A stretch of DNA of 64,000 nt from Verrucomicrobiota bacterium (GTDB lineage: Bacteria > Verrucomicrobiota > Verrucomicrobiia > Limisphaerales > SIBE01). This document shows positions 21,971 to 63,262 of this stretch, piece by piece. Every line of letters starts with the position of its first letter. Position 1 is the stretch's first letter. The DNA lies in the NCBI GenBank assembly GCA_021733945.1, contig JAIPJX010000008.1:12975-76974 (forward strand). Reading direction: 5' to 3'. Made by a program: the position numbers and the translations under genes. The notes beneath the pieces are model-generated. The model ran no database searches. It was given only the letters and a program-made list of their open reading frames with translations, and was not told where the DNA came from.

Positions 21971-22783
21971 ATGGTCATCAACACAAATATTGAGGCGCTT
22001 GTAACCTCAAACAACCTTCAGGCCAGCAGCGCGCGTCTTGCGAAATCGCTATCGCGCCTTAGCTCGGGTACCAAGATTGTGGCGCCTTCCGACGACGCCG
22101 CGGGACTTGCGGTGTCATCCCGGCTGAAAGCGCAGATCGGGCGTCTGGACGCGGCCATGACGAACATCGTCAATGCTGTTTCGTTCACACAGACGCAGGA
22201 TGGGTTCCTCAAAACCGTCGGCAACGCCCTGAGCCGCATGAGCGAACTGGCGATGTTGGCGCAGGACGGAACCAAGTCCAACGACGACCGCGCTCTGTAT
22301 CATGCTGAATTTTCCCAGCTCAAGGACTTCATCTCGGTGACCCAGAGCAAGGAGTTTAATTCGGTCTCGCTCTTCTCCACCGCCACCTTGGATGTCACCA
22401 TCGATTCCTCCGGGAGCACATTCGGGTTGACCGGCATCGACATGAGCGCGGCGAGCTATTCGGCCGCCTATGCCGGGACGCTTGATATTTCCACTTCCCT
22501 TGGAGCCGTGAGCGCGGTTTCCGTGGTTCGGGCTGCCATCGACCGGGTTTCCCTGGATCGCGCCACGCTCGGTTCCCTGCAGGCTCGCCTGAATTTCACC
22601 AGTGAGCAGCTGAGCGTGACCAAGGAAAACCTGAGCGCCGCAACTTCGCGAATCACCGACGTCGATGTGGCCGATGAATCCACCGAATTTGCGCGTGGCC
22701 AAATCCTGGTTCAATCAGGCACGGCGATGTTGGCGCAGGCAAACACGCTCCCGCAGTCCGCCTTGCGTCTGCTCGGCGCGTAG
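21971..22783 (+). CDS. fliC: flagellin paralog 1 (270 aa, D0/D1-only size)
   Basis: MVINTNIEAL...SSGTKIVAPSDDAAGLAVSSRL... N-terminus and ...FARGQILVQSGTAMLAQANTLPQSALRLLGA C-terminus. Confidence 0.95.
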   Translation: MVINTNIEALVTSNNLQASSARLAKSLSRLSSGTKIVAPSDDAAGLAVSSRLKAQIGRLDAAMTNIVNAVSFTQTQDGFLKTVGNALSRMSELAMLAQDGTKSNDDRALYHAEFSQLKDFISVTQSKEFNSVSLFSTATLDVTIDSSGSTFGLTGIDMSAASYSAAYAGTLDISTSLGAVSAVSVVRAAIDRVSLDRATLGSLQARLNFTSEQLSVTKENLSAATSRITDVDVADESTEFARGQILVQSGTAMLAQANTLPQSALRLLGA

Positions 22784-22817
22784 GTCTGATTGGGTTCGCC
22801 TTTTATTACTCTGAGTC

Positions 22818-23636
22818 ATGGCTGTCATTAACACCAACACGGTTGCCGAGCAGACCTCGAACAACCTGCGGGCCAGCACAGCCTCCCTTTCCAAGTCCCT
22901 CTCGCGACTCAGCTCCGGGTTAAAGATCGTCCAGCCTTCCGATGACGCCGCCGGATTGGCGGTGAGTTCCCGGTTGGAGGCGCAAATCCGTCGTCTGGAC
23001 GCGGCCCTCAACAACGTTGTCAATGCGGTTTCCTTCACCCAGACCCAGGATGGGTTTCTGAAGACGGTTGACAAGGCATTGCGCCGGATGGGTGAGCTTG
23101 CGATGCTCTCGCAGGACACCACCAAGTCCCAGTCCGATCGTACGCTTTACAACCAGGAGTATGTTCAGCTTCAGGACTACATCCGCGCCACGGCCACCAA
23201 GGATTTCAACTCCGTTTCGCTTTTCTCATCAACCACCTTTGGTGTGACGATCGATGAGAAAGGAAGCACTTTTGATTTTCCGGGAACCCCCATCCTCAGC
23301 AACGCATCGTATGCGAACGCGATCGATCCATCGATTGACTTGACCACTTCGCTCGGCTCCGTGCAAGCCCTGGCCAACGTCTCCGGGGCAATCAATCAGA
23401 TTGCATTGGACCGTGCTCGTTTGGGTGCCGTTCAATCGCGTTTAAACTTTACGAACGATCAGTTGACGACTACAAAGGAGAACCTGAGCGCAGCAATCAG
23501 CCGGATCTCCGACGTCGACGTGGCCGAAGAGGCAACCCAGTTCGCACGCTTCCAGATTCTGGTGCAGTCCGGCACGACGATGTTGGCCCAGGCAAACGCC
23601 CTGCCGCAATCCGTGCTTGAGCTGCTGCGGTCGTAG
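22818..23636 (+). CDS. fliC: flagellin paralog 2 (272 aa)
   Basis: MAVINTNTVAE...SSGLKIVQPSDDAAGLAVSSRL... and ...FARFQILVQSGTTMLAQANALPQSVLELLRS. By eye roughly two-thirds identical to paralog 1 in the conserved termini. Confidence 0.95.
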   Translation: MAVINTNTVAEQTSNNLRASTASLSKSLSRLSSGLKIVQPSDDAAGLAVSSRLEAQIRRLDAALNNVVNAVSFTQTQDGFLKTVDKALRRMGELAMLSQDTTKSQSDRTLYNQEYVQLQDYIRATATKDFNSVSLFSSTTFGVTIDEKGSTFDFPGTPILSNASYANAIDPSIDLTTSLGSVQALANVSGAINQIALDRARLGAVQSRLNFTNDQLTTTKENLSAAISRISDVDVAEEATQFARFQILVQSGTTMLAQANALPQSVLELLRS

Positions 23637-23816
23637 GCCTGGTTCGGATTGAGTTTCGGGCGATTGTAGGATGCTTGGATCCGCTGTCTTTTAGTCGGTT
23701 GGGCCAGGTGCAACAAAGATACGCATGATGAAAGCCTGGAGTTTTATGCTTGATACCCGGGGTGCGGCAGCTTTGTCTTCGAATCTGGTGAGGAAGTCGT
23801 TGGCCGGCACCCGTTG

Positions 23817-24353
23817 ATGCACGATTTAGACACAGTTCGACGCTGGTATTGTGTTCGAAGCACCTGTGGCTATGAATTGCGAGCTGCGGAGTTGTTGAGC
23901 CGTTCTGTGGGGAATCTTAAGGCTGCAATCGGGGAGGTTGACGTTTTTTGTCCCACTCTTCGAAGGCACATGCGAGTAGGAGGGCATCGTCGTCAGATTC
24001 TTGCCCCCCTGTTTCCAGGTTATTTCTTCAGCCGCTTCAATTTGGGAGTTGCGGCCCGGTTTGTTTCCAGTCGCCCTGGGGTCATAGGGTTGGTTCGATT
24101 TGGGGAGGAACCGGAGTCCGTTTCCGATCGAGTCATCGACGAGCTCAGGGAGACGGAATTTGACTCCGAACTGCATTGTGAAAGATTTTCACCTGGGCAA
24201 CACCTCACCGTTTCCGAAGGTCCGTTCGCGGGTATGGAAGTCGAATACGTTGCCTCGCTCAACGACGGACAGAGAGCGCTGCTTCTGGTGGAGTATCTGC
24301 ACCAAAGGGTGAATTTAGTTATTGAACAAACCTCGTTGGAAGCCGCAGCCTGA
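23817..24353 (+). CDS. NusG paralog (RfaH/UpxY-type specialised transcription antiterminator)
   Basis: NGN-like N-half (WYCVRSTCGYELRAAELL..., VFCPT..., LFPGYFFSRFNL) and KOW-like C-half (GQHLTVSEGPFAGMEVEYV). First gene of the island. ATG 23817 sits one codon inside the track's TTG 23814. Confidence 0.7.
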   Translation: MHDLDTVRRWYCVRSTCGYELRAAELLSRSVGNLKAAIGEVDVFCPTLRRHMRVGGHRRQILAPLFPGYFFSRFNLGVAARFVSSRPGVIGLVRFGEEPESVSDRVIDELRETEFDSELHCERFSPGQHLTVSEGPFAGMEVEYVASLNDGQRALLLVEYLHQRVNLVIEQTSLEAAA

Positions 24354-24393: not shown

Positions 24394-25959
24394 ATGGATC
24401 CAGTCACCCAATCGGCTTCGAGCCAGCTTCCCGACTATCGGGCAAAGATCGCGGACATTGACCGACTGACCGTCATCATTGCGGCAAAGAAGGCGGAGGG
24501 AAAGAGAATTGTCCATGCCCACGGTGTGTTCGACCTCCTCCACGTGGGGCATATACGGCATCTCAAGGAAGCGAGGCAGATGGGGGATGTGCTGGTGGTG
24601 ACCCTTACCCCGGATCAGTTTGTCAACAAGGGGCCACACCGTCCGGCGTTTCCTCAGGAACTCCGTGTCGAATCGCTCGCTGCGCTTCAGATGGTTGACT
24701 ATGTAGGGGTTTCTCGATGGCCCACGTCGGTCGAAATAATCGGTCGGTTGAAGCCCGACATTTACGTCAAAGGGGCGGAGTTTAAGGAACTCGAGGATAT
24801 CACGGGTGCGGTCAGCGAAGAAGTCAAAGCTGTTCGCGGTGTGGGTGGCGAGGTGCGCTTCACGGAAGATTTAACCTTCAGTTCGTCAAATCTCCTCAAT
24901 CGTTTCTTTGGGCAGTTCTCTGCCGAAACGGAGAGCTATCTGGAACAATTTCGGCAGGGTCATTCTGCGGACGAAGTATTGGAGTGGTTGGAAAAAGTCG
25001 CACTGATCTCGCCGTTGGTGGTGGGCGAGGCAATTATTGACGAATATCAGTTCTGCCATGGCATTGGAAAATCGACGAAGGATCCGGTGCTTGCAGTCCT
25101 TCACGAAGATTTAAAGGCGTGTGCGGGGGGGAGTCTGGCGATAGCCAATCACCTGGCTGGCTTCTGCAGCAGAGTCCGGTTGGTGACGCAGTTGGGGGAA
25201 ATCGATTCTCGAGAAGAATTTGTGCGAAGTTCGCTGCGTCCAAATGTGGACGGGACCTTTCTCATAAAGTCCAAATCACCCACCATCCACAAGCGGCGGA
25301 TCATTGATAAATATTCGGGAAACAAACTGCTTGAAGTTTACCGGATGGATGACCGATCGACCTCCGGACCGAATGACGAACAGCTGGACTCGATTTTGGC
25401 GGAAGATCTTCGGGACAGCGGCCTTGATCTGTCGATCGTGGCTGACTACGGGCACGGAATGCTCAATGAGGAAACCATCCACCGGATTTCAAACGACGCT
25501 CAGTGGCTTGCTTTGAACGTGCAGTGTAATGCTGGTAACCGGGGTTTAAACCACATTTCCAAATACCCCAAGGCCGACTATGTTTGTTTGGCGAATCACG
25601 AGCTGGACATAGAGGTGCGTCACCGGGAGTTGACTCTTAAGGAACGAATTAAACTCCTCGCGAGTCGGATTCAGTGCCCTCGCTTCACAATCACGGGCGG
25701 GAGCACCGGAACGATGCACTTCGATTCCTCGAATGAATTTCATGAAGCTCCCTCCCTTGCCATGCGGGTTGTGGATCGTGTTGGTGCCGGGGACGCTGTG
25801 TTTGCGATCACCTCCCTGCTCGTGAAGATAGGGGCACCTTGGCCAATTGTGGGTTTCATAGGGAATGCGGCGGGTGGAATGGTCGTTTCAAGCCTTGGGA
25901 ACCGTGTTCCGCTAAACAAGGTCGCGTTGAGTCGGTATCTGATTTCCCTGCTGAAATAG
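24394..25959 (+). CDS. bifunctional nucleotidyltransferase (cytidylyl/adenylyl-transferase fold) + PfkB-family sugar kinase; HldE-like with swapped domain order
   Basis: N-half IVHAHGVFDLLHVGHIRHLKEARQMGDVLVVTLTPDQ...KGPHRPAFP...VDYV...PDIYVKG aligns by eye with HldE domain II. C-half is ribokinase-like (…VVDRVGAGDAVFAI…). ATG 24394 avoids overlap with the NusG paralog. Confidence 0.7.
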   Translation: MDPVTQSASSQLPDYRAKIADIDRLTVIIAAKKAEGKRIVHAHGVFDLLHVGHIRHLKEARQMGDVLVVTLTPDQFVNKGPHRPAFPQELRVESLAALQMVDYVGVSRWPTSVEIIGRLKPDIYVKGAEFKELEDITGAVSEEVKAVRGVGGEVRFTEDLTFSSSNLLNRFFGQFSAETESYLEQFRQGHSADEVLEWLEKVALISPLVVGEAIIDEYQFCHGIGKSTKDPVLAVLHEDLKACAGGSLAIANHLAGFCSRVRLVTQLGEIDSREEFVRSSLRPNVDGTFLIKSKSPTIHKRRIIDKYSGNKLLEVYRMDDRSTSGPNDEQLDSILAEDLRDSGLDLSIVADYGHGMLNEETIHRISNDAQWLALNVQCNAGNRGLNHISKYPKADYVCLANHELDIEVRHRELTLKERIKLLASRIQCPRFTITGGSTGTMHFDSSNEFHEAPSLAMRVVDRVGAGDAVFAITSLLVKIGAPWPIVGFIGNAAGGMVVSSLGNRVPLNKVALSRYLISLLK

Positions 25960-26110: not shown

Positions 26111-27121
26111 ATGAAAGAAGTGGATGCTGAGGGCAAAACGGTCCTTGTTACGGGCGGGGCCGGATATGTTGGAGCGGTGCTGGTGCCCCGCCTCTTGGAA
26201 CAAGGCTTCAGGGTCAAAGTTCTGGATCTGTTTATTTACGGGGATGACGTGCTGAGGGGGGTGCAAGGGAATTCGAACCTTGAGCAAATCCGGGGTGATA
26301 TACGAGATCAGAAACTGCTTCGAGAAACGATGCGGGGGTGTTATTCGGTGATTCATCTGGCCTGCATTTCCAATGATCCAAGCTTTGAGTTGGATCCCGA
26401 GTTGGGGCGGTCGATTAATTTCGATGCGTTTGGACCTCTGGTCGATATCGCGATTGAATCCGGGGTTCAACGATTCATCTACGCTTCTTCATCGAGCGTC
26501 TATGGACTGAAAAGCGAGTCCGATGTTACTGAGGATCTTGCGCTGGAGCCCCTGACGGATTATTCAAAATACAAGGCCCTCTGTGAGGAGATCCTGCTCG
26601 AAAAGAGGACCTCCAATTTCACCACACTCATTCTCCGACCAGCTACGATTTGCGGTTACTCCCCGCGATTGCGGCTGGATCTGACCGTGAACATCCTCAC
26701 GAGCCACGCTTTTCATAACCGGTTGATCACGGTGTTTGGCGGAACCCAGATGCGCCCGAATCTGCATATCGAGGATATGGCGGCTCTCTACGTCAAATCC
26801 CTGAAGCTACCGGCTGAATCGATTGACGGAAAGATCTACAACGCCGGATATGAGAATCATCGGGTTAGTGAAATCGCCATGATTGTCAAGTCTTTTGTTG
26901 GACCGGATGTCCAGATTGTGACAAAATCCACGGATGATAATCGTTCATACCACATTTCATCCGAGAAGATCCGACGGGAGCTGGACTTTATACCCAAACA
27001 TACCCTTCAGGATGCCGTAAGTGGTCTGGTTGCTGCGTTCAACCAAAATCTCGTGCCGGACGCATTGACCAAAGACATCTACTACAATATTCGCAAGATG
27101 CAGGGCCTTTCTCTCGCGTGA
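26111..27121 (+). CDS. NAD-dependent nucleotide-sugar epimerase/dehydratase (extended SDR)
   Basis: ATG 26111. Rossmann TGGAGYVG, catalytic YSKYK. The longer track start 25997 adds non-protein-like sequence. Confidence 0.75.
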   Translation: MKEVDAEGKTVLVTGGAGYVGAVLVPRLLEQGFRVKVLDLFIYGDDVLRGVQGNSNLEQIRGDIRDQKLLRETMRGCYSVIHLACISNDPSFELDPELGRSINFDAFGPLVDIAIESGVQRFIYASSSSVYGLKSESDVTEDLALEPLTDYSKYKALCEEILLEKRTSNFTTLILRPATICGYSPRLRLDLTVNILTSHAFHNRLITVFGGTQMRPNLHIEDMAALYVKSLKLPAESIDGKIYNAGYENHRVSEIAMIVKSFVGPDVQIVTKSTDDNRSYHISSEKIRRELDFIPKHTLQDAVSGLVAAFNQNLVPDALTKDIYYNIRKMQGLSLA

Positions 27122-27942
27122 CAGAGCAGAACCAAGACCTAGCGGTGATGTGCAGAGCCATTCGAACCCGTTTGGTGGAGATGTCCCATCAGGCTGGGGT
27201 ACCTCATTTGGGTTCGTCGTTATCTTGTGTCGAAATCCTGGCAGCCGCTTATTGGGGGGGGTTGAACCTCGATCCCTCCTGTCCGGATGACCCGGACCGG
27301 GACCGGTTTATTCTGAGCAAAGGACATGCGGCGTCCACGCTTTACGCGGCACTCGCGCTCAGGGGATTTTTTCCGCTTTCGTTGCTGGATGATTTTGCCA
27401 AGGCTGGAAGTCGGTTTCCTGAACATCCGAGTCCTCATTGCCTTCCGGGCGTCGAAGTTGCCACAGGGTCGCTTGGTCACGGTTTGTCGTTGGCGCTTGG
27501 GATGGCTCTGGCGGGCCGAATCCAGGCTCGAAAATTTCGTTCGTTCGCAGTCTTGAGTGATGGCGAGTGCAACGAGGGAACCGTTTGGGAGGCAGCCTTG
27601 TTCGCTGGAGGGCAGAAACTGGATCGCGTTGGTGTTATTATCGATTACAACAAATGGCAGGCCACGGGACGAAGCAACGAAGTGATGGCGTTGGAACCCA
27701 TGCGGGAGAAGTGGAATAGTTTCGGGTGGAGCACCTATGAGATTGATGGGCATGATTTGAAGGCGCTCGGGTCAACCATTCGGGCGGTTCCGGATGGGAC
27801 CGGAAAACCGGTTGCCGTCGTGGCTCATACGGTCAAGGGAAAGGGTGTGTCGTTCATGGAAGACGACAACAACTGGCATTATCGCGTTCCCTCTGCGAGT
27901 GAGTTGGCGGAGGCAAAACGAGAAATCGAGTCACTCGCATGA
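27118..27942 (+). CDS. transketolase, N-terminal (TPP-binding) subunit
   Basis: 274 aa. ...HLGSSLSCVEIL..., GSLGHGLSLALGMALA, LSDGECNEG. GTG start overlapping the upstream stop. Confidence 0.85.
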   Translation: MTEQNQDLAVMCRAIRTRLVEMSHQAGVPHLGSSLSCVEILAAAYWGGLNLDPSCPDDPDRDRFILSKGHAASTLYAALALRGFFPLSLLDDFAKAGSRFPEHPSPHCLPGVEVATGSLGHGLSLALGMALAGRIQARKFRSFAVLSDGECNEGTVWEAALFAGGQKLDRVGVIIDYNKWQATGRSNEVMALEPMREKWNSFGWSTYEIDGHDLKALGSTIRAVPDGTGKPVAVVAHTVKGKGVSFMEDDNNWHYRVPSASELAEAKREIESLA

Positions 27943-28880
27943 GAAACGCGTTTGCTGCGGAGATGGCAGATCTTGCTGAGGCGGATCAACGCATCGTTCT
28001 TATGTCGGGGGATATAGGAAATCGCCTCTTCGACCGGTTCAAAAACTGCTATCCGAAACGTTTTTTGAATTGTGGCGTTGCCGAGGCGAACATGGTCAGC
28101 ATGGCTGCCGGAATGGCGATGTGCGGGTTCAGGCCAGTTGCCTACACGATAGCTTCCTTCATGACCAGTCGTTGCTTCGAGCAGATTCGAGTTGATCTTT
28201 GTTATCATAATGTTCCGGTGGTCATCGTCGGAGTTGGCGCAGGACTTTCCTATGCCGCCAACGGCCCGACTCACCACAGTTGTGAGGATGTTGCCATTTT
28301 ACGGGCGCTCCCTCACATCACTGTGATTTGTCCCGCTGATCCGATTGAGACTCGCCTTGCCCTCAAAGCGGCGCTTGCGAACGACGGACCCTGTTACATT
28401 CGCTTGGGAAAAAAGGGGGAGCCGAACCTGCATGGAAACATTCCGGAATTCCTGATCGGAAAAGGCATCGTTGTTCATAGAGGCTCGGGGGTTTGCCTTC
28501 TCGGGACAGGGACAATCCTTCCCGTCGCCGTTGAGGCAGCAGAACGTCTCGGGAAGGACGGGATTCGACCGGAAGTTGTGAGCCTGCACACGGTCAAGCC
28601 ACTCGATGAAGAGCTCCTTTTCGATGTCTTCTCACGTTTCGAAGTTGTTGTAACGGTTGAGGAGCACAGCGTTATTGGCGGACTTGGCAGTGCGGTGGCC
28701 GAGTGGATTGCGGATCATCCGTTTCTGAAGGGGCGCCTCTACCGAATTGGCACTGCAGATAGGTTTATCCACGAAGCGGGAGGTCAGGAGCATGCCCGAA
28801 AACACTTTGGCCTCACTCCGGAAGCGATTGCCCAGAAAGTAACCAGCTGGGTCCGCGGAGGGGCGGTGGAGGTCAAATGA
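27939..28880 (+). CDS. transketolase, C-terminal (pyrimidine-binding) subunit
   Basis: 313 aa. ...NCGVAEANMVSMAAGMA..., ...EEHSVIGGLGSAVAE... ATGA overlap with the N-subunit gene. Confidence 0.85.
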   Translation: MRNAFAAEMADLAEADQRIVLMSGDIGNRLFDRFKNCYPKRFLNCGVAEANMVSMAAGMAMCGFRPVAYTIASFMTSRCFEQIRVDLCYHNVPVVIVGVGAGLSYAANGPTHHSCEDVAILRALPHITVICPADPIETRLALKAALANDGPCYIRLGKKGEPNLHGNIPEFLIGKGIVVHRGSGVCLLGTGTILPVAVEAAERLGKDGIRPEVVSLHTVKPLDEELLFDVFSRFEVVVTVEEHSVIGGLGSAVAEWIADHPFLKGRLYRIGTADRFIHEAGGQEHARKHFGLTPEAIAQKVTSWVRGGAVEVK

Positions 28881-29926
28881 AAACGCTTGCTGCAGTCCTC
28901 GTCGAAACGGGACGGCCTTTGGAATTGGCAGAACTTGAAGTCCCCACCCTACAGGCGGGACAGGTTCTGGTGGATATCGCCTTTAGCGGTGTCTGCCATA
29001 CCCAGCTGCTGGAGGCTAGGGGATACCGCGGCAACGATCCATTCCTGCCTCATTGCATGGGGCATGAAGGAAGTGGGAGGGTAATCGAAGTCGGACCCGA
29101 AGTCTCCAAGGTCAAATCCGGCGACGAGGTGGTGCTCTCCTGGATCCAGGGAACGGGAGCAAATGTCCAGAGCACGATTTACAAATGGAATGGTCGTGCG
29201 GTAAATGCGGGTGCCGTTACCACGTTTAGTCGTCAATCCATTATAAGTGAGAATCGCCTGACCCGGTTGCCGGCTCATGTTCCGACGGAGGCAGCAGCGC
29301 TCCTTGGGTGTGCTATTCCGACTGGGTTCGGTTCGGTTTTGAATACAGCCCAGGCGCGCCCTGGCCAGAGCATAGCCGTTTTTGGGGTTGGAGGAGTTGG
29401 GCTATGCGCGGTAGTGGCCGCTGCCATGGTCGGATGTAAGCCGATCATCGCCGTGGATGTGTTGGCGCACAAATTGGAATTGGCGAAACTGGCTGGGGCA
29501 ACTGACATAGTCATGGCTTCTTCAGGCGACCCCTTGCAGGCGATCCGCCGCCTGATCCCGGACGGGATAGATCTAGCCGTTGAAGCGACCGGGCGCCCCG
29601 AGGTGATGGTTCAGGCTTTGGCCGCAGTCAGACGAAGAGGCGGAACTTCGATTGTCATTGGAAATGCACGGAAGGGTGAGCGCCTCAGTTTGGATCCCGG
29701 CGAGTTTAACCAAGGCAAGCGAATACTCGGAACCTGGGGTGGAGACAGTAGTCCGGACATTGATTTTCCTCGGTACGCAAAACTCCTGGTTTCGTCAAAA
29801 CTGAATCTGCCGGCCCTTCTTGGGCGAATCTATTCGCTGGAATCAATCAATGAGGCTTTGGAAGGTCTTGAATCCGGGCAGGTCGCAAGGCCCCTGATCG
29901 ACATGAGGCTCGGAGCACCGTGTTGA
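28877..29926 (+). CDS. zinc-dependent alcohol dehydrogenase family (MDR) oxidoreductase
   Basis: 349 aa. GVCHTQL, CMGHEGSGRV, Rossmann AVFGVGGVG. Confidence 0.8.
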   Translation: MKTLAAVLVETGRPLELAELEVPTLQAGQVLVDIAFSGVCHTQLLEARGYRGNDPFLPHCMGHEGSGRVIEVGPEVSKVKSGDEVVLSWIQGTGANVQSTIYKWNGRAVNAGAVTTFSRQSIISENRLTRLPAHVPTEAAALLGCAIPTGFGSVLNTAQARPGQSIAVFGVGGVGLCAVVAAAMVGCKPIIAVDVLAHKLELAKLAGATDIVMASSGDPLQAIRRLIPDGIDLAVEATGRPEVMVQALAAVRRRGGTSIVIGNARKGERLSLDPGEFNQGKRILGTWGGDSSPDIDFPRYAKLLVSSKLNLPALLGRIYSLESINEALEGLESGQVARPLIDMRLGAPC

Positions 29927-29948: not shown

Positions 29949-30572
29949 ATGTTAATAGGCCTGGACTTTGACAATACCATAATCTGCTATGACTCCGTGT
30001 TTCATCAGGTCGCGGTAGAAAGGGCGCTCATCCCCTCCAGTGTGCCAGCGATCAAAGAGGCGATCCGGAACTATTTGCGATCTGCGGGAAAAGAAAGAGA
30101 ATGGACCGAGCTTCAAGGCTATGTTTATGGAAAGCGGATCACTGAGGCGGAAGCCTTTCCCGGACTGTTCGAGTTCCTTGGAGGGTGCAAGGATCGAAAC
30201 ATCGATTTCATTGTGATCAGTCACAAAACGCAGTTTCCATTTCAGGGGCCACCTTACGATTTGCACGTTTCGGCGCGAAATTGGATGGAACAAAAGGGCT
30301 TCTTCGATTCGAGTCGTATCGACTTCAGTGAAGATCGACTTTTTTTCGAGCCCACAAAACAGCGCAAATTGAACCGAATCGCTGCGATGGGCTGTCAGCA
30401 TTTTGTAGACGATTTGCCTGAAATCTTTGCCGACCCCGAATTTCCCGTAGGTGTGCACGGGATCCTGTTTGATCCAGCTTCAAGAGGCACTGAAGTGCCG
30501 GGGGTTCAGTCGGTTGTTTCCTGGACGGAGGTCGGAGGCATTGTTTTCTCAATCGGAGAAGTAACACTTTGA
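29949..30572 (+). CDS. HAD-superfamily hydrolase (probable sugar phosphatase)
   Basis: 207 aa. HAD motif I at the extreme N-terminus (LIGLDFDNTI). Confidence 0.6.
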   Translation: MLIGLDFDNTIICYDSVFHQVAVERALIPSSVPAIKEAIRNYLRSAGKEREWTELQGYVYGKRITEAEAFPGLFEFLGGCKDRNIDFIVISHKTQFPFQGPPYDLHVSARNWMEQKGFFDSSRIDFSEDRLFFEPTKQRKLNRIAAMGCQHFVDDLPEIFADPEFPVGVHGILFDPASRGTEVPGVQSVVSWTEVGGIVFSIGEVTL

Positions 30573-31591
30573 TCACGGAGGAAGTCAGGGAAATCGCTAC
30601 GGGTCTGGCTTTCGCGTGTGGGGGCGGACCCATCAGTGACATTTTCCAACGGACAGGAGGGGGGAACAACCGGGGGTTCGAAGTCCGTGGGCGGATTCGA
30701 ATGTTCCTGAAGCTTTATTTTCAGCATCCGTGTGATCCACGCGATCGGCTACGGGCCGAGTATGATTTTTGCGAGTTGCTGTGGAATCAAGGCCTGCGGA
30801 GCGCTCCGCAGCCGTTGGTCCGGGATCCGTCGCACCATGCGGCGCTTTACGAGTTTATCGAGGGTCGCTCTTTAAGTGAAGACGAGATCACGGAAGGCAG
30901 AATCCTCGAAGCTGTCGAGTTTCTCCTGGGAGTGAACGAACTCAAAACGAGAGCGCGCCCTTTGAACAAGGCGTCAGAAGCCTGTTTTAGTTTGGACGAG
31001 CATTTGGAATGTGTGGGGCACCGGGTTCAGGGTATGCTGGTCATCGGCGATGCTTCGGAGGAAGATCGGGAGGCCTCGGTGTTCGTTCGGCAACATCTGC
31101 TGCCGGCGTGGGAGCGGATCAAAAAACAAACGATCGAATGGTCAAGCCGCGTTCTGGGCAGAACTTTGAGTGATGCTGAACGATGTGTTTCACCTTCTGA
31201 TTTCGGGTTTCACAACGCGTTGCTAACATCGCACGATCGATTGCGTTTCATCGATTTTGAATACGCTGGCTGGGATGATCCTGCAAAACTGGCATGCGAT
31301 TTTTTCTGCCAACCGGCGTTGCCGGTGCCTGTTCGATTTCTAGACGCCTTTTTGCGACCGTTGCTCAACAAATTCGGGGACCCCGATCTGCTTCGGGAAC
31401 GAATCCGGTTGCTCTTGCCAGTCTACAGGATCAAGTGGTGCTGCATCCTCCTGAACGAATACCTGCCTGCTGGCAAGGCTCGCAGGAGGTTTGCAGACAA
31501 GACCTTCAATTCAGACCATCGTAAACCAGTCCAACTTGCAAGAGCCCGGGACCTTCTTGAAAGCGCCCTCCGCTCGGAAGCGAGAAGTTAA
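30569..31591 (+). CDS. APH/choline-kinase-fold phosphotransferase
   Basis: 340 aa. Catalytic segment FGFHNALLTSHDRLRFIDFEYAGWDDP. The TTG start (overlapping the HAD stop) is uncertain. Confidence 0.6.
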   Translation: MITEEVREIATGLAFACGGGPISDIFQRTGGGNNRGFEVRGRIRMFLKLYFQHPCDPRDRLRAEYDFCELLWNQGLRSAPQPLVRDPSHHAALYEFIEGRSLSEDEITEGRILEAVEFLLGVNELKTRARPLNKASEACFSLDEHLECVGHRVQGMLVIGDASEEDREASVFVRQHLLPAWERIKKQTIEWSSRVLGRTLSDAERCVSPSDFGFHNALLTSHDRLRFIDFEYAGWDDPAKLACDFFCQPALPVPVRFLDAFLRPLLNKFGDPDLLRERIRLLLPVYRIKWCCILLNEYLPAGKARRRFADKTFNSDHRKPVQLARARDLLESALRSEARS

Positions 31592-31601
31592 AAAGGCTCA
31601 G

Positions 31602-32603
31602 ATGAACTCAACTAGAAAAGTCGTCGTTTTGGGGGCGAATTCGTTTTCCGGTCAGGATTTCGTCGATCTTCTTCTCGATGATCCCAAATATCAGGTCATA
31701 GGCATTAGTCGATCGCCAGAGAGATCCGCCGTATTCCTAAGATACCGGATTCGTTCTGATCTGGGCCGGTACCGGTATCATGCTCTGGATCTGAATCACG
31801 ATGCCGAAGATTTGCTTCAATTGCTCGATGTGGAACGTCCCGAATATATTGTCAATTTCGCTGCTCAGAGCGAGGTGGCGCCCAGTTGGGATTGGCCGGA
31901 GCACTGGTTTCAAACCAACACGGTGGCTTTGGCTCGCTTGGTGAATCATCTTCGTAAACAAGATTATCTCAAACGTTATATTCATATTTCGTCGCCGGAA
32001 GTCTATGGAAACTGTCACGGAACGGTCTTCGAAGACGCCCCGTTGAATCCGAGCACTCCCTACGCCGCCTCGAAGGCCGCGGCGGATATGTTACTTGATG
32101 TATATCAAAAACAGTATGGCTTTCCCGTCCTGAAAGTAAGGGCGACGAACGTTTATGGAGCGCGGCAACAACTCTTTAAGATAATTCCAAGAACGGTGAT
32201 ATACATCCGGTTGGGCAAACGAATCCCTCTCCATGGCGGAGGACGGTCGGTTAAATCCTATATTCATGTTCGGGATGTGTCGCGCGGCGAGGCGGCGGTG
32301 ATGGAGCACGGTCAAGTCGGGTCGTTGTATCACCTATCGCCGGTTGGGGGAGTGGCGGTGCGAACCGTGGTAAAGTCAATCGTGGAAATACTCGGAAAAT
32401 CCTTTGAGGATGCTGTTGATTCTGTGGAGGAGCGACCTGGTCAGGATGCGGCCTACGTGATTGATTCAACTCGGGCGCGAACCGAACTGGGTTGGTCCCC
32501 GAAAATGGAATTGACGACGGGAATTGAGGAAACCGTCCGATGGATTGAGGACTATTGGCAGCAGATTGCTGAAATGCCGTTGGAATACCTCCATAAAAGT
32601 TAA
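31602..32603 (+). CDS. NDP-sugar 4,6-dehydratase-like extended SDR
   Basis: ATG 31602. VVVLGANSFSGQ Rossmann, YAASKAAADML (YxxxK). RmlB/GMD-like overall. Confidence 0.7.
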   Translation: MNSTRKVVVLGANSFSGQDFVDLLLDDPKYQVIGISRSPERSAVFLRYRIRSDLGRYRYHALDLNHDAEDLLQLLDVERPEYIVNFAAQSEVAPSWDWPEHWFQTNTVALARLVNHLRKQDYLKRYIHISSPEVYGNCHGTVFEDAPLNPSTPYAASKAAADMLLDVYQKQYGFPVLKVRATNVYGARQQLFKIIPRTVIYIRLGKRIPLHGGGRSVKSYIHVRDVSRGEAAVMEHGQVGSLYHLSPVGGVAVRTVVKSIVEILGKSFEDAVDSVEERPGQDAAYVIDSTRARTELGWSPKMELTTGIEETVRWIEDYWQQIAEMPLEYLHKS

Positions 32604-32611
32604 GGTTCGCT

Positions 32612-33274
32612 ATGGCATACATAGATTTTATAACAACAATTCACAGATCTACGAAGCGCGATTACGTTGCACGGGTGAATGAGTTCGACAAAGCCAAGGC
32701 GGCGGAGAAAGCCGGGCAGTTTGGGTTTGATTACTGGGATGGAGACCGAAAATTCGGATACGGCGGATACCGTTACGATGGTCGATGGCACCGGGTGGCG
32801 GAGATGATGGCCAAACACTATGATCTCAAGGAGGGGGCGCGTATTCTGGATGTGGGCTGTGGGAAGGGGTTTCTGCTTTATGAATTCACCCAGGTGATTC
32901 CGGGTGCGCAGGTGGTTGGAATCGACGTTTCTGCCTATGCGATTCAGAACGCCAAGGAGGAGGTGCGGCCCCAGTTGGGTCTTGGAAATGCGAACGCACT
33001 TCCGTTTGCCAACGAGTCGTTCGATCTGGTTTACTCAATCAACACGCTTCACAATCTCTACATCAACGATCTGTGGATGGCGCTGAAAGAAATCGAGCGC
33101 GTGGGGCGTGAATCGAAGCATGTCACTGTTGAAGCCTATCGCAACGAAAGAGAAAAGGTGAATTTGCTTTACTGGCAATTGACCTGTCGTGCGTTTCACA
33201 CGCCGCATGAATGGGAGTGGATTTATCAACAGGCCGGCTACTCCGGGGATCACTCATATATCACGTTCGAGTAG
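32612..33274 (+). CDS. class I SAM-dependent methyltransferase
   Basis: 220 aa. Motif I ILDVGCGKGF. Confidence 0.75.
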   Translation: MAYIDFITTIHRSTKRDYVARVNEFDKAKAAEKAGQFGFDYWDGDRKFGYGGYRYDGRWHRVAEMMAKHYDLKEGARILDVGCGKGFLLYEFTQVIPGAQVVGIDVSAYAIQNAKEEVRPQLGLGNANALPFANESFDLVYSINTLHNLYINDLWMALKEIERVGRESKHVTVEAYRNEREKVNLLYWQLTCRAFHTPHEWEWIYQQAGYSGDHSYITFE

Positions 33275-33314
33275 TCTGGCGGATGAGCGCACCCTCGATC
33301 ATGGGAAATTCCGT

Positions 33315-34583
33315 ATGAATGAGATCAAGGTGACGAAACGGACAACCTGCCGACTTTGCGAAAGCCCTCGCTTGGAACTGGGAGCTTCACTGGCACCCAC
33401 GCCGGTGGCGGAAAAATACGTTGCGAGGGACGAGTTGGATCTTCCGACTCCGGCTCATCCGCTGGATCTGTTCATTTGCCTCGACTGCGGGCACGTACAG
33501 CTCCTTTACGTGGTGGATTCGGAATACCTCTTTGATAATTACACCTACGTCAGTGGCGGTACGAAGTCCCTCGTTCAACATTTCGATGAATGCGCTGCGG
33601 CAACCATCGAGCGTTTCAAGATTGGAACCGACAGCCTCATTGTTGACATTGGCAGCAATGACGGATCTTTGCTTCGGTGTTTCCAGAGGCGCGGGCTACG
33701 GGTGCTTGGAGTTGATCCGGCGAAGGAGATCGCCCGGAAAGCCACGGAAGCTGGGATTCCGACGTTCCCTGCCTTTCTGACGCAGGAGCTGGCTGGAAGG
33801 ATTCGTCGTGAGCATGGCCCGGCTTCTGTGGTCTGCGCATTCAACGTGTATGCCCATGCTGATGCGCTCGGCTTAATGACGGAGAGCATTCGGGAGTTGC
33901 TGTCGCCCACAGGCGTGTTCGTTTTTGAGTTCTCGTATTTGATGGATATCTTCGATCGCATGCTGCTTGGAACAATATTTCACGAGCATCTGAGCTACCA
34001 TTCCTTAAAACCAATGGATTTGTTCCTGAAGAGGCATGGTTTGGAATTGATCGATGTCCAGCGCAACCTGATTCAGGGCGGTTCCGTTATCGGGACTGCG
34101 CAATTCATCGGGGGGCCCCATTTGGAGGCCCCATCGGTGAAGGAATCGCTGCGACTTGAAGAAGCCCGGAACATCGACAAACCGGAGACTCTCAAAATGT
34201 TTGCGGCGAAACTGCAGCAGGTCAAAGGCGAACTGGGGGGGCTGATCGCAGATTTCAAGAATCAGGGAAAATCAGTCTGGGGATACGGTGCCGCGCGGAG
34301 CGGAACGACGCTCATCGCTCAGATGAATCTCGGGGGAATTATCAGTCACATCGTCGACGATAGCCCGGACAAGCAGGATATGTTCAGCCCGGGTGACCAT
34401 ATCCCGATCCTGCCGGCGCAAGCACTCACAGAGAAAATGCCCGACTACGTTTTCATCTTGGCCTGGATTCACGCACCAAGCATTATTAGGAATAATCGGG
34501 AATACCTCGCAAAGGGTGGACGCTTCATACTTTGCTTTCCTGAGATTCAGATCGTGGGAGAAGAAGAGACGGGTGATCAATGA
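33315..34583 (+). CDS. NDP-hexose C-methyltransferase-like enzyme (TylC3-type layout)
   Basis: ATG 33315. N-terminal zinc ribbon CRLCES...CLDCGH, SAM motif VDIGSNDGS, and a C-terminal extra domain as in sugar C-methyltransferases. Confidence 0.65.
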   Translation: MNEIKVTKRTTCRLCESPRLELGASLAPTPVAEKYVARDELDLPTPAHPLDLFICLDCGHVQLLYVVDSEYLFDNYTYVSGGTKSLVQHFDECAAATIERFKIGTDSLIVDIGSNDGSLLRCFQRRGLRVLGVDPAKEIARKATEAGIPTFPAFLTQELAGRIRREHGPASVVCAFNVYAHADALGLMTESIRELLSPTGVFVFEFSYLMDIFDRMLLGTIFHEHLSYHSLKPMDLFLKRHGLELIDVQRNLIQGGSVIGTAQFIGGPHLEAPSVKESLRLEEARNIDKPETLKMFAAKLQQVKGELGGLIADFKNQGKSVWGYGAARSGTTLIAQMNLGGIISHIVDDSPDKQDMFSPGDHIPILPAQALTEKMPDYVFILAWIHAPSIIRNNREYLAKGGRFILCFPEIQIVGEEETGDQ

Positions 34584-35734
34584 ATCGATGCCTCGTGTGC
34601 CAAGGGTCGCGTGTCCGTCAGTTGGTGGACTTTGGAACGCAACCAATCAGTCATCATTTTCTTGCCGGCAGCGGCACGGCACGACGCTATCCGTTGGCAT
34701 TGGGGCAGTGTGACGACTGCTGCCTTGTGCAGCTGTTGGGTGTGATCTCCGCTGAGGAGCTGGTTCCTCAATTTGACTGGATTCGGTACAACGAACCGGA
34801 GTTTCATCTCGACGCAATGGTTGACTCCCTCTGCCTGCGACTTCCCCCTGGAGCGACGATCTGCGGTTTGAGTCATAAGGATGATTCGACACTCCGTCGC
34901 TTTCGTGATCGAGGCTTTGAGAATACCCATCGCCTCGATTTGGGAATTGCCGATCCGCGGGCAGGAGTGGAGACGATACAGGACAGATTAAGACCTGAGA
35001 ATCTTGACCTGCGGGAGCCCGTGGATCTTGTGGTTGCTCGCCATATCCTTGAGCATTCGCATAATCCTCTCGTATTTATGGGGGCATTGCGGAAGCTCAT
35101 CAAACCATCCGGGTATGTTGCAGTGGAGATACCCGACACCAGATTGCCGTTTGACCTGCTCGATTACACCGTTCTCTGGGAGGATCACAGTCTCTATTTC
35201 TCTGAGTCCACGCTTCGGGAGACTTTGAAGGTGGGCGGTTTTCAATGCGTCGCGGTCACCAGCTATTCCGCACGGTATGAGACTGCCGTCGTCGCAGTTG
35301 TCCGGCCTGGAGAAGGAGGGGGGTGGCTCTCAATGGATGGCGAGCGCGAGCGGGCAAATCGATTTGCGCAGGCCTACCCTAGGAGACGGAACGAGTGGCG
35401 TGAGCTCCTGACGAATCGTGGAAGAGTTGCGCTGTTTGGGGCGGGGCATCATGCATCCGTATTTACGAATCTGATGGGGGTCGCTGATCTGATCGAATTT
35501 ATTGTGGATGATTCGCCCAATAAATGTGGTTTGAGAATGCCTGGAACCGAACTTCCGATTGTCGGTTCGGAACGTTTGAGCGACATCGAAATGTGCCTCA
35601 GCAGTCTTGGTGATGGCAGTGAAAGGGCGGTTTTGGCACAGCTTCAGCCGTTTATTAGACGTGGCGGGATCTTCGCCTCGATTTTCCCGAGCAATCCCAA
35701 TTCTCCATTCACACTGATCGGAGGGGAACTGTGA
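34580..35734 (+). CDS. second, divergent C-methyltransferase-like enzyme
   Basis: 384 aa. CLVCQG...CDDCCL zinc ribbon, MT core, same three-part layout. ATGA overlap with the previous gene. Confidence 0.55.
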   Translation: MNRCLVCQGSRVRQLVDFGTQPISHHFLAGSGTARRYPLALGQCDDCCLVQLLGVISAEELVPQFDWIRYNEPEFHLDAMVDSLCLRLPPGATICGLSHKDDSTLRRFRDRGFENTHRLDLGIADPRAGVETIQDRLRPENLDLREPVDLVVARHILEHSHNPLVFMGALRKLIKPSGYVAVEIPDTRLPFDLLDYTVLWEDHSLYFSESTLRETLKVGGFQCVAVTSYSARYETAVVAVVRPGEGGGWLSMDGERERANRFAQAYPRRRNEWRELLTNRGRVALFGAGHHASVFTNLMGVADLIEFIVDDSPNKCGLRMPGTELPIVGSERLSDIEMCLSSLGDGSERAVLAQLQPFIRRGGIFASIFPSNPNSPFTLIGGEL

Positions 35735-36237
35735 AATCGGTCAACCCCGAGGTCTTTGTTTCGGAGGACCGTATTGTCACCGTTGGAGCCGCTCAACTCG
35801 AGACATTAAAGAAACAGGCTGCAAGGAACGCTCGAAGGCGTTGCAGGTTGTGCGCGCACAAGACTCCGCAGGATCGTCTCCACGAAATGTTTATCGTGTT
35901 GGCCCGGGGTATTTATATCCGACCCCATAAACATATTGGAAAGACAGAGTCCTTCCATGTCATTGAAGGGGCCGCTGATATTATCTTCTTCGACGACGTC
36001 GGTGGGATAGAAGAGGTTCTGCGTGTGGATTCTGCGGGAATCTTCTACTTTCGGAATGACGAGCCCCGTTTTCATACGCAGATCGTCATCACCGAATTTT
36101 TGGTCGTACACGAAATCACGAACGGCCCGTTTGATCGAACCGACACGGTTGGAGCGACCTGGGCTCCAGACGAATCCGATGTTGCGGCCGGAGCCGCCTA
36201 TTTGGAGTGTTTGAAACGCGATGTCGCACCGGTCTAG
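35731..36237 (+). CDS. WbuC-type cupin-fold protein
   Basis: 168 aa. ...CRLCAHKTPQDRLHEMFIVLARGIYIRPHKHIGKTESFHVIEG... Confidence 0.6.
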   Translation: MKSVNPEVFVSEDRIVTVGAAQLETLKKQAARNARRRCRLCAHKTPQDRLHEMFIVLARGIYIRPHKHIGKTESFHVIEGAADIIFFDDVGGIEEVLRVDSAGIFYFRNDEPRFHTQIVITEFLVVHEITNGPFDRTDTVGATWAPDESDVAAGAAYLECLKRDVAPV

Positions 36238-37090
36238 TTTAAGGTTTCTCGTGGTGGGCGCATCCGGGTTTATTGGATGCCATCTCATGCACCACATCCG
36301 TTCACGAGGTTTTGATGCCTTCGGGACTTCGTCGGCGACGATGAACCTGCTGACGGACCGGATTGCGGATGTTATCGGGGATTTCCGGCCGACTCATACA
36401 ATCATCGCCGCAGTTATCAGTAACATGGATCGCTGTCTTGCGGAGAGGGAGATGAGTTACAGAGTCAATGTCACAAACACGATACGCCTGATAGAGGATG
36501 TCAGAAGCATGGGCAGTCGACCGGTGTTTCTCTCAACCAATTTTGTCTTTGACGGTTCGGTTGGGTGTTACAATGAGGAAGCCCCCATATCTCCGGTCAA
36601 TGAATACGGCCGGCACAAGGCGGAAGTGGAGGGATACCTTCGAGCCAATGTTCCAGAAGGTTTGGTGACGCGGCTCTCCACGAATGTTGGAGACAATCCG
36701 GGGGAAGCGCATTTGTTTTCACAATGGTATCAATTACTGATCGAAAACAAGCCGATTGTCTGCATTGACGGCGCAATGATTTCCCCGACTTATGTTGAAG
36801 ATGTAGCGCATGCGCTTGTGACCTGCTGTGAGCGAAAGATAACGGGATTGTTTCATCTGGCTAACACAGAGAGTTTTTACAGGAATGATTTAGCTCTAAA
36901 GTTTTGCGATGCGTTCGGCAAGAAAGCGAATATCATTCGCAAGCCGCTAAGGGAATTTGGTTTCCTCGATAACCGTGCATTGAAGGCGGATCTGGACAGT
37001 TCCAAATTTGTTCACACGACAGGATTGAGCTTCACTCCAATGGGGGAAGTAATTCGAAGATTCATTGAAAACGTCCGGTTGAACCAGTGA
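36221..37090 (+). CDS. RmlD-like NDP-4-keto-sugar reductase (SDR)
   Basis: 289 aa. VVGASGFIG Rossmann, YGRHK. 17-nt overlap with the cupin gene. Confidence 0.65.
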   Translation: MSHRSSLRFLVVGASGFIGCHLMHHIRSRGFDAFGTSSATMNLLTDRIADVIGDFRPTHTIIAAVISNMDRCLAEREMSYRVNVTNTIRLIEDVRSMGSRPVFLSTNFVFDGSVGCYNEEAPISPVNEYGRHKAEVEGYLRANVPEGLVTRLSTNVGDNPGEAHLFSQWYQLLIENKPIVCIDGAMISPTYVEDVAHALVTCCERKITGLFHLANTESFYRNDLALKFCDAFGKKANIIRKPLREFGFLDNRALKADLDSSKFVHTTGLSFTPMGEVIRRFIENVRLNQ

Positions 37091-37216
37091 TTTATTGAAT
37101 TTTGTGGCCTGAATCCCACGAAGCCATGGATGTCACCGGATCTTTCGTGGTTCTCGATTCGTCCATGCCGGGGTGATCGGCTTGACGGGGCCCGTGTGGT
37201 TCGAATACAAAAAACT

Positions 37217-37924
37217 ATGCCTGATGTGTTGATTACGGGAACAAGCAGCGGTTTGGGCTTGGAATTCGTCCGATCCATGGCGGCCGAGGGTTGGAGGATC
37301 ATTGCAACCTGCCGAAATCCTTCGGACGCCCTTGCGCTCAAGGGAGTTGGTGGAGACATTCGAATTCGCCCGATGGATGTTTCAAGGACGGAACAGATCA
37401 GGGCCGTTGCAGGTGAATTTTCCGGTGTTCCTTTGGATATGGTGATCAACAATGCCGGAACCCATGGCCCACGGGATGCCAGTGGGACTTTTGGCGACAT
37501 AGATGTCGAAGCGTGGATCGAGGTTCTTCGGGTCAATGCGATCGGGCCAGCGAAGGTTGCCGAGGCGTTTCTTCCGAACATCCGACTTGGTCGGATGAAG
37601 AAACTCGTCTTCGTGACAAGTCGTGCCGGGAGTATTTCGGAACGGGGTAGCCTGCCTCACATGAGGCGCGGCGGACCTTATATTTACCGGACAAGCAAGG
37701 CTGCCGCGAACGCCGCCGCTAAAGCAATCGCGTACGATCTGCAACCGGAGGGAATCAGCGTTGTGGTTTTGCATCCGGGGTGGGTGAAGACGGAGACCGG
37801 TGGGTGGGATGCGCCCGGTGACCCGGCCATCAGTGTTGCTGGAATGCGAAAGGTAATCGATTCAGCCTCGCCCGCGGACAACGGAATTTTTCGAAATGTG
37901 GACGGAGCCCCGATTCCATGGTGA
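37217..37924 (+). CDS. classical short-chain dehydrogenase/reductase
   Basis: ATG 37217. TGTSSGLG and YRTSK motifs. Confidence 0.75.
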   Translation: MPDVLITGTSSGLGLEFVRSMAAEGWRIIATCRNPSDALALKGVGGDIRIRPMDVSRTEQIRAVAGEFSGVPLDMVINNAGTHGPRDASGTFGDIDVEAWIEVLRVNAIGPAKVAEAFLPNIRLGRMKKLVFVTSRAGSISERGSLPHMRRGGPYIYRTSKAAANAAAKAIAYDLQPEGISVVVLHPGWVKTETGGWDAPGDPAISVAGMRKVIDSASPADNGIFRNVDGAPIPW

Positions 37925-45227: not shown

Positions 45228-45517
45228 TCTCTGGGTGCGACCGCCGCAGCCGAGTCATGCGATGTGCGAACGGGAACTCCGCCAGTCGGCGCATCCTGAG
45301 GTGGCCTAGAATCGTGATGGGATCCACCTCTTTCAACAATTCATTCGATGCTACTCGTGGAGCCGTGACATCCTTGTCCACCGAGGTTCGCGGGGCGGGC
45401 GGCAAAGTCGATGGTGGAAAACGGTGGGTATCTCCTTCCTGCGGAGTATCGCCTCCGGAAACGGGTGGTACGGGTTCCGGAAGCAGCAGGGGGATAGCAC
45501 AGCCGAGCTCGTTCGCT

Positions 45518-55717: not shown

Positions 55718-56653
55718 TTAACGGATGTAGTCGAGGAGGGACGTGCCGAGGATCTTTCCTCCGGTTTGCAGCGCAGCGGTGTAGGCGTTTTGCACTTCGC
55801 TCAGGGAGACCAGGGTCAGGGACAGATCGGCATCCGCCTCCTGGGAGACGAGGCCTTCGAGAGACGCTTTCTGGCGATTGGCAATCGAGCTGGCGGTGTC
55901 GAGTCGGGTCTGGGTGGCACCGATTCTGCCGTAGTGATGAATGATGTTCTCTTCGTCCTTCAGGAGATTGCCGAGATCCACCTTGTTGATCGTTTCCGCA
56001 TTCCCCGCCTGCAGATTGTCCCGCAGGGCGATGAGGTGGGCGAAGAAATCGGATCCCGATCGGGGATCCGCCAGCAGGCCCCGCTCGCCGACTCCCGATG
56101 CATTTGCCCCGGGAATCATGGCTGAAATCTTGATTCCCTCTCCGATTTCGCTTTCCGCCACTGTGGAGGAACCCTGGTAGGCGACGGAAACGACCTTGCC
56201 ATTCGCATCGCGGGTTGCGTTGAACGGGAGAGTGGAGTTCTTGGTTCCGCCGAACAGGTAGGAGGCGTGATGCCGGGTGTTGGAGATTTGCAGCGTTCGT
56301 TCGATGAGCTGGTCCACCTCGGTTGCGAATGTGACGAGTTCCTCGGGTGTCTTCAGGGAATCGACGCGTGTGGCGATTTCTCCCGCCCGATCTGAAACCT
56401 TCTTGATGCCCGAGATGGATACGTAGGACGCTTCGACGGTGTCCTTGAGATTGGCAATGTTCTTTTCGTACTGCCCCAGCAGCTTGATCTCGCCCTGCAT
56501 GTCCAGGACCCTGCGCATTGCCCGGGGATCCTCGCTTGAGACATGAAATCGTTGACCGGTTCCCGCCTGGGTCTGGAGACGCGCCTGCTTGGTGGCCAGA
56601 TTGGTGAGCTGGTTTCGCAGAGCCGTGGGGAATGTGCTGGAAGTTACTCGCAT
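55718..56653 (-). CDS. flgL: hook-filament junction protein FlgL
   Basis: 311 aa. MRVTSSTFPTALRNQLTNLATKQARLQTQAGTGQRF... flagellin-like termini. Follows flgK. Confidence 0.85.
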   Translation of the reverse strand: MRVTSSTFPTALRNQLTNLATKQARLQTQAGTGQRFHVSSEDPRAMRRVLDMQGEIKLLGQYEKNIANLKDTVEASYVSISGIKKVSDRAGEIATRVDSLKTPEELVTFATEVDQLIERTLQISNTRHHASYLFGGTKNSTLPFNATRDANGKVVSVAYQGSSTVAESEIGEGIKISAMIPGANASGVGERGLLADPRSGSDFFAHLIALRDNLQAGNAETINKVDLGNLLKDEENIIHHYGRIGATQTRLDTASSIANRQKASLEGLVSQEADADLSLTLVSLSEVQNAYTAALQTGGKILGTSLLDYIR

Positions 56654-56703
56654 ATGGTCAGGCAGGAAAAGGTTTTATGGGTCAGGCGGTTTCTCCCGGA
56701 TGG

Positions 56704-58140: not shown

Positions 58141-58152
58141 AGCAGTTTGCCT

Positions 58153-59000: not shown

Positions 59001-59002
59001 GG

Positions 59003-60112: not shown

Positions 60113-60120
60113 GATGGAGA

Positions 60121-61675: not shown

Positions 61676-61679
61676 CCAA

Positions 61680-62462: not shown

Positions 62463-62477
62463 GGTGAAAAAATCGGA

Positions 62478-63233: not shown

Positions 63234-63246
63234 TCGGGACCTTCCG

Positions 63247-63262
63247 AGCACGCGGCGTGCCA
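63247..63262 (-). promoter_or_regulatory. sigma-54 (RpoN) -24/-12 promoter of the flgF operon
   Basis: The minus strand reads TGGCACGCCGCGTGCT: 11 of 12 defined consensus positions, and the same TGGCACG-N4-GTGCT form as at flgB. It ends 13 nt before the flgF ATG. Confidence 0.7.

Follow-up and report, generated by a model that had tools for sequence, protein, structure and literature searches.

A split transketolase with a remodelled substrate pocket in a putative bradyrhizose-type cassette of a probable flagellin glycosylation island

Bradyrhizose is a non-immunogenic, bicyclic sugar that has been made in a 26-step synthesis and whose biosynthesis was stated to be unknown; gdh belongs to an 11-gene cluster, and gdh mutants lack the bradyrhizose O-antigen (Busset 2016, PMC4743980). 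Split transketolases, encoded by two genes, have been proposed to place a hydroxyacetyl group on keto-sugars in amipurimycin and miharamycin, sugar modification by such enzymes being so far a proposal only, and E1 alpha/beta-class enzymes add acetyl (C2) branches to keto-sugars (PMC12247030). In flagellin glycosylation, the tetratricopeptide repeat (TPR) domain of FlmG binds flagellin (PMC7591256). Here we describe a split transketolase and an adjoining zinc alcohol dehydrogenase (ADH) in a 64,000-nucleotide stretch of a Verrucomicrobiota bacterium genome (GCA_021733945.1, contig JAIPJX010000008.1, positions 12,975 to 76,974 of the forward strand; hereafter the window). The transketolase quite probably forms a carbon-carbon bond on a sugar derived from a nucleoside diphosphate (NDP)-heptose, as a specialised thiamine diphosphate (ThDP) carboligase for the skeleton of a bradyrhizose-type higher sugar.

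The enzyme is encoded by tkN, for the ThDP-pyrophosphate-binding (PP) half, and tkC, for the pyrimidine-binding (Pyr) and C-terminal domains, with the ADH gene (adh) directly behind them (Table 1). Consecutive genes overlap by 4 nt, with GTGA at 27118, where the stop of an upstream short-chain dehydrogenase/reductase (SDR) gene meets the tkN start, and ATGA at 27939 and 28877. Open reading frames (ORFs), overlaps and Pfam matches confirm the first-pass annotation of this DNA, which had described coupled genes for the two transketolase halves followed by a zinc ADH of the medium-chain dehydrogenase/reductase (MDR) type. Stand-alone tkC proteins of 305-330 aa were found as 120 C-subunit homologues, in a search that covered proteins of 172-548 aa, and two separate tkN and tkC genes are also present in the gene calls of other contigs; the split is therefore not a frameshift artefact. 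The nearest solved structure is the Carboxydothermus split transketolase (6YAK/6YAJ, E 6e-67 and 3e-57; TM 0.89 for the predicted model), and separate PP and Pyr+C genes with a 6YAK-like fold make this a split-gene transketolase.

A full-length tkt lies on contig C38 of the same genome (828.8 bits versus the TIGR00232 cut-off of 682) and shares only about 30% identity with the split pair, whose halves score 253 and 203 bits, in sum below the cut-off of 488 for the NCBIfam equivalog NF004559. The first-pass annotation had asked for a second full-length tkt and for a phylogeny against it: its presence indicates that the split pair is not housekeeping, and a quick tree, in which the branches of the housekeeping and E1 rows are saturated and which we take as agreement, parts canonical from glycan-locus transketolases (99). 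The window and Bradyrhizobium proteins fall in one weakly resolved group of that tree. A match to the split pair at E<=1e-60 was found in 11 of the 41 genomes searched, this genome counted.

The ThDP-binding motif and the catalytic Glu and His residues of canonical transketolase are intact, with His30, His70, His103, His254 and the DGE motif in tkN and Glu49 and His112 in tkC; Arg2 of tkC is kept as well. Substrate recognition in transketolase involves Ser384, Arg357, Arg520, His461 and Asp469 (PMC4601599), and changes of Asp469 in the E. coli enzyme, a hotspot for non-native aldehydes, lead to higher activity on aliphatic aldehydes (bioRxiv 10.1101/719906). Only the Arg357 equivalent of these five is retained in tkC, with Gly100 at the position of His461, Asn108 at Asp469, Lys158 at Arg520 and Asn28/Arg29 at Ser384. 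Asp469 reads the 2-hydroxyl of the acceptor. Among the 120 homologues the His461 site is Gly in 120/120, the Arg520 site Lys in 120/120 and the Asp469 site Leu or Asn in 119/120 (Leu in two thirds, Asn in the window tkC), and the change at the Ser384 site is nearly invariant too; canonical split transketolases of the same order (L065, L068) retain His, Asp and Arg. By alignment, the enzyme has kept its catalytic residues and is predicted to have lost most of the sugar-phosphate and 2-hydroxyl pocket. The predicted tkC model is poor (pLDDT <50) at residues 109-114, the remodelled loop, and uninformative on pocket geometry.

When translated, the published gdh primers (Busset 2016) align with the window dehydratase at the correct spacing. 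An exact gdh primer gave no match in metagenomes, and a degenerate version led to metagenome contigs whose copy of the cassette contains the two sites. Their tkC clusters with Bradyrhizobium-named proteins, including ABQ37595.1, which we take to come from strain BTAi1 and which lies in a cluster of exactly 11 genes: reversed HldE, NTP transferase, SDR, SIS, gdh, tkN, tkC, adh, HAD, APH and an S-adenosylmethionine (SAM) protein. Both gdh primer sites lie in the dehydratase of this cluster, about 381 bp apart and with 2 and 1 mismatches. For nine of the 11, the best match is a gene of the window cassette, which holds clustered orthologues of reversed HldE, SDR, gdh, tkN, tkC, adh, HAD, APH and the SAM protein (25, 40, 47, 59, 59, 55, 42, 42 and 57% identity, respectively). 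With GmhA-like and NTP-transferase genes on other contigs only, the window set is a variant of the bradyrhizose-type cassette and not a copy. A sample of 400 Alphaproteobacteria genomes gave one match; gdh-type genes were also seen in Tardiphaga, Bradyrhizobium betae, B. denitrificans and a B. diazoefficiens record, a range wider than photosynthetic strains.

Seeding with the ADH gave 52 related loci (30-70% identity, many on short contigs) in Planctomycetota, Elusimicrobiota, Acidobacteriota, Nitrospirota, Chloroflexota, Pseudomonadota, Bacillota, an archaeon and others. The set that recurs is reversed HldE (28 loci), SDR, tkN (36), tkC, adh, HAD (35), APH kinase (34), dehydratase (33) and SAM protein (methyltransferase, 30), frequently with a GmhA-like gene (16). 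Eight of the 52 loci carry an E1 alpha/beta pair at most 10 kb from the same ADH, and 7 of these lack the remodelled transketolase type at the threshold used. Because these pairs belong to the class that branches keto-sugars, the position of the transketolase in the cassette looks like a slot for a C2 carboligase. Cassette versions with an E1 pair (L006, L038, L044; also L035) often have two tandem DegT-family genes; were these to encode 3-dehydrases, a 3-deoxy carbocyclic nonose with a methyl end, such as caryose, could be the product. In plasmid and phage collections, the only close cassette was on plasmid pDCAR1 of the cultured Solidesulfovibrio carbinolicus (L072), where two split transketolases share a glycan locus amid pseudaminic-acid genes; one is of canonical type, and the other is remodelled and accompanied by HAD, APH and SAM protein.

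The ADH carries the catalytic residues Cys40/His63/Cys145 and an NAD-type Asp194, and it lacks the structural-zinc lobe, as do all 67 relatives checked, 65 of which have Cys-His-Cys zinc ligands. It matches class I/III, benzyl and NDMA-type ADHs best, and polyol-phosphate dehydrogenase models far less well (E 1e-22 versus 1e-58). These ligands and affinities point to a primary alcohol or aldehyde as substrate, unlike TarJ; neither the zinc site nor the similarity is of polyol-dehydrogenase type, in a comparison with general features of TarJ and with no TarJ sequence.

Bradyrhizose is a ten-carbon bicyclic inositol-fused sugar with ring closure via OH-4, OH-5 or OH-9 (PMC9912281). We infer the reactions, donor, product and acceptor that follow from gene content, orthology, pocket changes and context, which are observed. 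The HldE-like enzyme and a phosphatase, with a GmhA-like isomerase encoded elsewhere, would supply NDP-heptose, and the gdh-type protein, assumed to be a dehydratase, would convert it to the 4-keto-6-deoxy form. Bradyrhizose is a 4,9-cyclo-6-deoxy-8-C-hydroxymethyl nonose. Its C1-C7 and 6-deoxy position, together with an electrophilic C4, would be explained by this heptose front end and 4,6-dehydratase. The transketolase would contribute a two-carbon glycolaldehyde unit. In the order that we marginally prefer, the zinc ADH would oxidise C7 to an aldehyde that the transketolase then extends; in the other, the transketolase would attack the C4 ketone to give a hydroxyacetyl branch, and the ADH would reduce or oxidise later. 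Both orders would provide two carbons able to close a carbocycle between C4 and C7. A C7 aldehyde beside a CH2 without an alpha-hydroxyl would fit the loss of Asp469, and an amipurimycin-like attack on the C4 ketone would fit too. The extra C-methyltransferases, cupin and reductase may modify the product or serve a second sugar, and their addition suggests either a product other than bradyrhizose or the synthesis of a further sugar.

Several points weigh against this route. Heptose plus C2 makes nine carbons, so that the tenth bradyrhizose carbon is unaccounted for, and the APH kinase, HAD and SAM protein are left unexplained. The GmhA-like and HddC-like genes are not in the window, their best matches lying on contigs C208 and C186, and Arg2, Arg29 and Lys158 could still bind phosphate. 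The link to the ORS285 cluster runs via primers and near relatives, gdh alone was mutated in Bradyrhizobium, where polar effects are possible (PMC4743980), and a branching role for transketolase is still unproven even in Streptomyces (PMC12247030). No in-vitro test of any cassette enzyme was found in the literature, and reading on transketolase with O-antigen, Leptospira rfb, flagellin glycosylation and Coxiella lipopolysaccharide (LPS) gave nothing relevant.

Two flagellins and a NusG paralogue flank the sugar block on one side, and a flgL-flgI-flgA-rod cluster on the reverse strand flanks it on the other. In relative G004, the slot behind flagellin-flagellin-nusG is occupied by PseB, PseF (both above cut-off) and a NeuB-like synthase; G009 has another NeuB-type pathway there, G007 a different aminosugar set and G006 the TPR glycosyltransferase directly. 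The NusG-like gene has a matching position in G004, G007 and G009. Because slot contents differ between family relatives, we consider this arrangement of variable sugar genes and TPR glycosyltransferases inside a flagellar cluster a probable variable flagellin glycosylation island. Its flagellins, flgL/flgK-side genes, TPR glycosyltransferases and variable slot bear out the first-pass annotation, which had placed the sugar pathway in a flagellin glycosylation locus. Judged from their sequences, the two window flagellins are likely glycan acceptors, and the TPR glycosyltransferases probably put the sugar on them. In relative G005 (contig C74; L108, 7693-13524), a different remodelled split transketolase (40-43%) and HddA/HddC-like genes lie directly downstream of flagellin.

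The full proposition, that flagellin is O-glycosylated with a carbocyclic, C-methylated, bradyrhizose-related higher sugar whose skeleton comes from transketolase action on a nucleotide-activated heptose, is speculative and in its entirety unlikely; we found no literature description of transketolase on nucleotide-activated heptose or of such a flagellin glycan. Weighing against it, all 52 related loci are free of flagellar genes over a distance of 10 kb. Together with its occurrence in a Microcoleus genome (a cyanobacterium) and a Methanosarcinales archaeon, this means that the cassette itself is not flagellum-specific, which the first-pass annotation overlooked along with the cross-phylum cassette and its match to the Bradyrhizobium cluster. 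Independently of the chemistry, the same sugar might be placed on LPS, capsule or another protein, an alternative that we regard as possible and not the likelier outcome. It draws on the studied Bradyrhizobium relative, which feeds LPS O-antigen (PMC4743980), on the cyanobacterial and archaeal copies, on the separate contigs of cassette and flagellins in G004, and on a GT9 domain that is present. The window cassette, however, has flagellins on one side and flgL/flgK on the other, in a slot that is filled by pseudaminic-acid genes in G004, and the adjoining TPR glycosyltransferases are built like flagellin-binding FlmG (PMC7591256).

Two other substrates for the transketolase were weighed. It could work on a ketose phosphate (sedoheptulose 7-phosphate or octulose 8-phosphate) before a GmhA-like isomerase and HldE-like activation, a route with an analogue in the entry to the lincomycin octose. 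GmhA-like SIS and reversed HldE genes do co-occur with the cassette, the SIS protein scores under the GmhA cut-off, so that a longer substrate is possible, and three basic residues remain near the pocket. This reading is nonetheless improbable, as sedoheptulose 7-phosphate is already made by the normal tkt, the equivalents of His461 and Asp469 are missing, the ADH would be left without a function, and E1-type pairs, unable to make sedoheptulose 7-phosphate, lie near the same ADH in 8 loci; the first-pass suggestion that the pair supplies this compound to the HldE-like enzyme is disfavoured on the grounds of pocket, tkt and E1 pairs. Its other suggestion divides: a carbon-extended or branched sugar gains from the pocket and cassette evidence, and a TarJ-type alditol phosphate loses because of the ADH type. 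That alditol phosphate, activated as a CDP-alditol by the cytidylyltransferase fold that forms the N-terminal domain of the HldE-like protein, is very unlikely; the TarJ analogy fits poorly with Cys-His-Cys ligands and a closest affinity to class I/III, benzyl and NDMA-type ADHs far above polyol-phosphate dehydrogenase models, and the cassette contains SDRs that modify NDP-aldoses. Split enzymes are the sole transketolase of some prokaryotes (PMC7661550), but an ordinary pentose-phosphate transketolase located here by chance is scarcely credible in view of a full-length tkt, a remodelled pocket, a match in just 11 of 41 genomes and fixed glycan-gene neighbours.

Carbon-carbon bond formation on an NDP-heptose-derived sugar thus remains our preferred reading, and other genes surround the pair (Table 1). 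The SDR upstream of tkN has 6VO6, presumably Cj1427 (NDP-heptose C4 dehydrogenase), as its best PDB match (E 1e-41); we do not assign it as Cj1427, as a gene on C186 is more closely related to 6VO6 (E 1e-113). The operon there (L111:3706-10054), with an L-2-hydroxyglutarate oxidase, this dehydrogenase, an HddC-like transferase and an HddA-like kinase, would be a GDP-heptose route and could complement the window cassette. In the gdh family, Ser-Pro-Glu or Thr-Pro-Glu replaces the Thr-Asp-Glu triad of dTDP-glucose dehydratases, and the glycine-rich motif is altered. Accessory C-methyltransferase, cupin and RmlD genes each occur in 7-13 of the 52 related loci. GC content is 53% in the sugar block versus 59% in the genome, and low-GC ORFs lie between the block and the TPR glycosyltransferases (38297-39559, 420 aa, no Pfam match; 39773-40855, 360 aa, faint sulfotransferase match). 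An ops-like element, GGCGGTAG, stands at 25971-25978, in the gap ahead of the SDR gene and downstream of the NusG paralogue; a promoter and terminator scan stayed at chance level.

Table 1. Positions and annotation of the genes discussed, in window coordinates.
Feature	Position	Strand	Details
Two short flagellins, Ser/Thr-rich	21971..23636	+	270 and 272 aa; 63 and 59 Ser+Thr; Pfam Flagellin_N/C
NusG/RfaH-like antiterminator heading the island	23814..24353	+	Pfam NusG E 2e-11; RfaH/UpxY below cut-offs
HldE-like nucleotidyltransferase and PfkB kinase, reversed domain order	24394..25959	+	25% to Bradyrhizobium gene 1, identical domain order
NAD-dependent SDR epimerase/oxidoreductase	26111..27121	+	ORF open from 25997; 40% to Bradyrhizobium gene 3
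tkN, split transketolase, ThDP-pyrophosphate-binding (N) subunit	27118..27942	+	274 aa, GTG start; Pfam Transketolase_N E 8e-39
tkC, split transketolase, pyrimidine-binding and C-terminal subunit	27939..28880	+	313 aa; Transket_pyr E 5e-40, Transketolase_C E 1.5e-26
adh, MDR zinc alcohol dehydrogenase	28877..29926	+	349 aa; Pfam ADH_N and ADH_zinc_N E 1e-21
HAD-like phosphatase	29949..30572	+	DxD motif; weak Pfam HAD E 0.018; 42% to Bradyrhizobium gene 9
APH/choline-kinase-fold kinase	30569..31591	+	42% to Bradyrhizobium gene 10
NDP-sugar 4,6-dehydratase-like SDR, orthologue of Bradyrhizobium gdh	31602..32603	+	47% to the gene with both published gdh primer sites
Conserved class I SAM-binding protein	32612..33274	+	57% to Bradyrhizobium gene 11
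Accessory block: two sugar C-methyltransferase-type genes, WbuC cupin, RmlD-like reductase, SDR	33312..37924	+	Absent from Bradyrhizobium cluster
Two multi-domain TPR glycosyltransferases	41049..55633	+	1392 and 3458 aa; domain scan
Flagellar genes at the far end of the island: flgL-like, putative flgK, flgI, flgA, two rod genes	55718..63263	-	flgK from position alone

The transketolase and ADH are the probable skeleton-building step of a bradyrhizose-type sugar, and this assignment makes both bradyrhizose biosynthesis and the role of split transketolases testable in Bradyrhizobium, which is cultured and amenable to genetics. Environmental genomes of many phyla commonly carry the cassette, which implies a family of undescribed surface sugars, and the window copy indicates that a bradyrhizose-type cassette may be able to fill a flagellin glycosylation slot.

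The window cassette shares with the gdh cluster of photosynthetic Bradyrhizobium (BRAO285v1_100023 region) the order tkN-tkC-adh-had-aph and the remodelled transketolase pocket; it differs in a dehydratase moved downstream, in the addition of two C-methyltransferase-type genes, a cupin, RmlD and an SDR, and in its position in a flagellar island with TPR glycosyltransferases, whereas the Bradyrhizobium cluster lies in an LPS region. Like the window, the amipurimycin and miharamycin systems have a split transketolase beside sugar oxidoreductases and a proposed C2 transfer to a modified sugar (PMC12247030). The 13 transketolase candidates of that review all come from Streptomycetes natural-product clusters, with function proposed, and are likened here by description; alphaKADH2 and YerE-type ThDP enzymes, which branch sugars, are grouped as analogues (PMC12247030). 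The split transketolase of Carboxydothermus hydrogenoformans (6YAK/6YAJ, PMC7661550) has the two-chain architecture, fold (TM 0.89) and ThDP and catalytic residues in common with the window enzyme, but its pocket has the canonical His, Asp, Ser and Arg residues, and it is the sole transketolase of its organism. FlmG-type flagellin glycosylation islands likewise combine a variable sugar pathway with a TPR glycosyltransferase in a flagellar cluster (PMC7591256); unlike theirs, the sugar pathway of the window is not a nonulosonate one.

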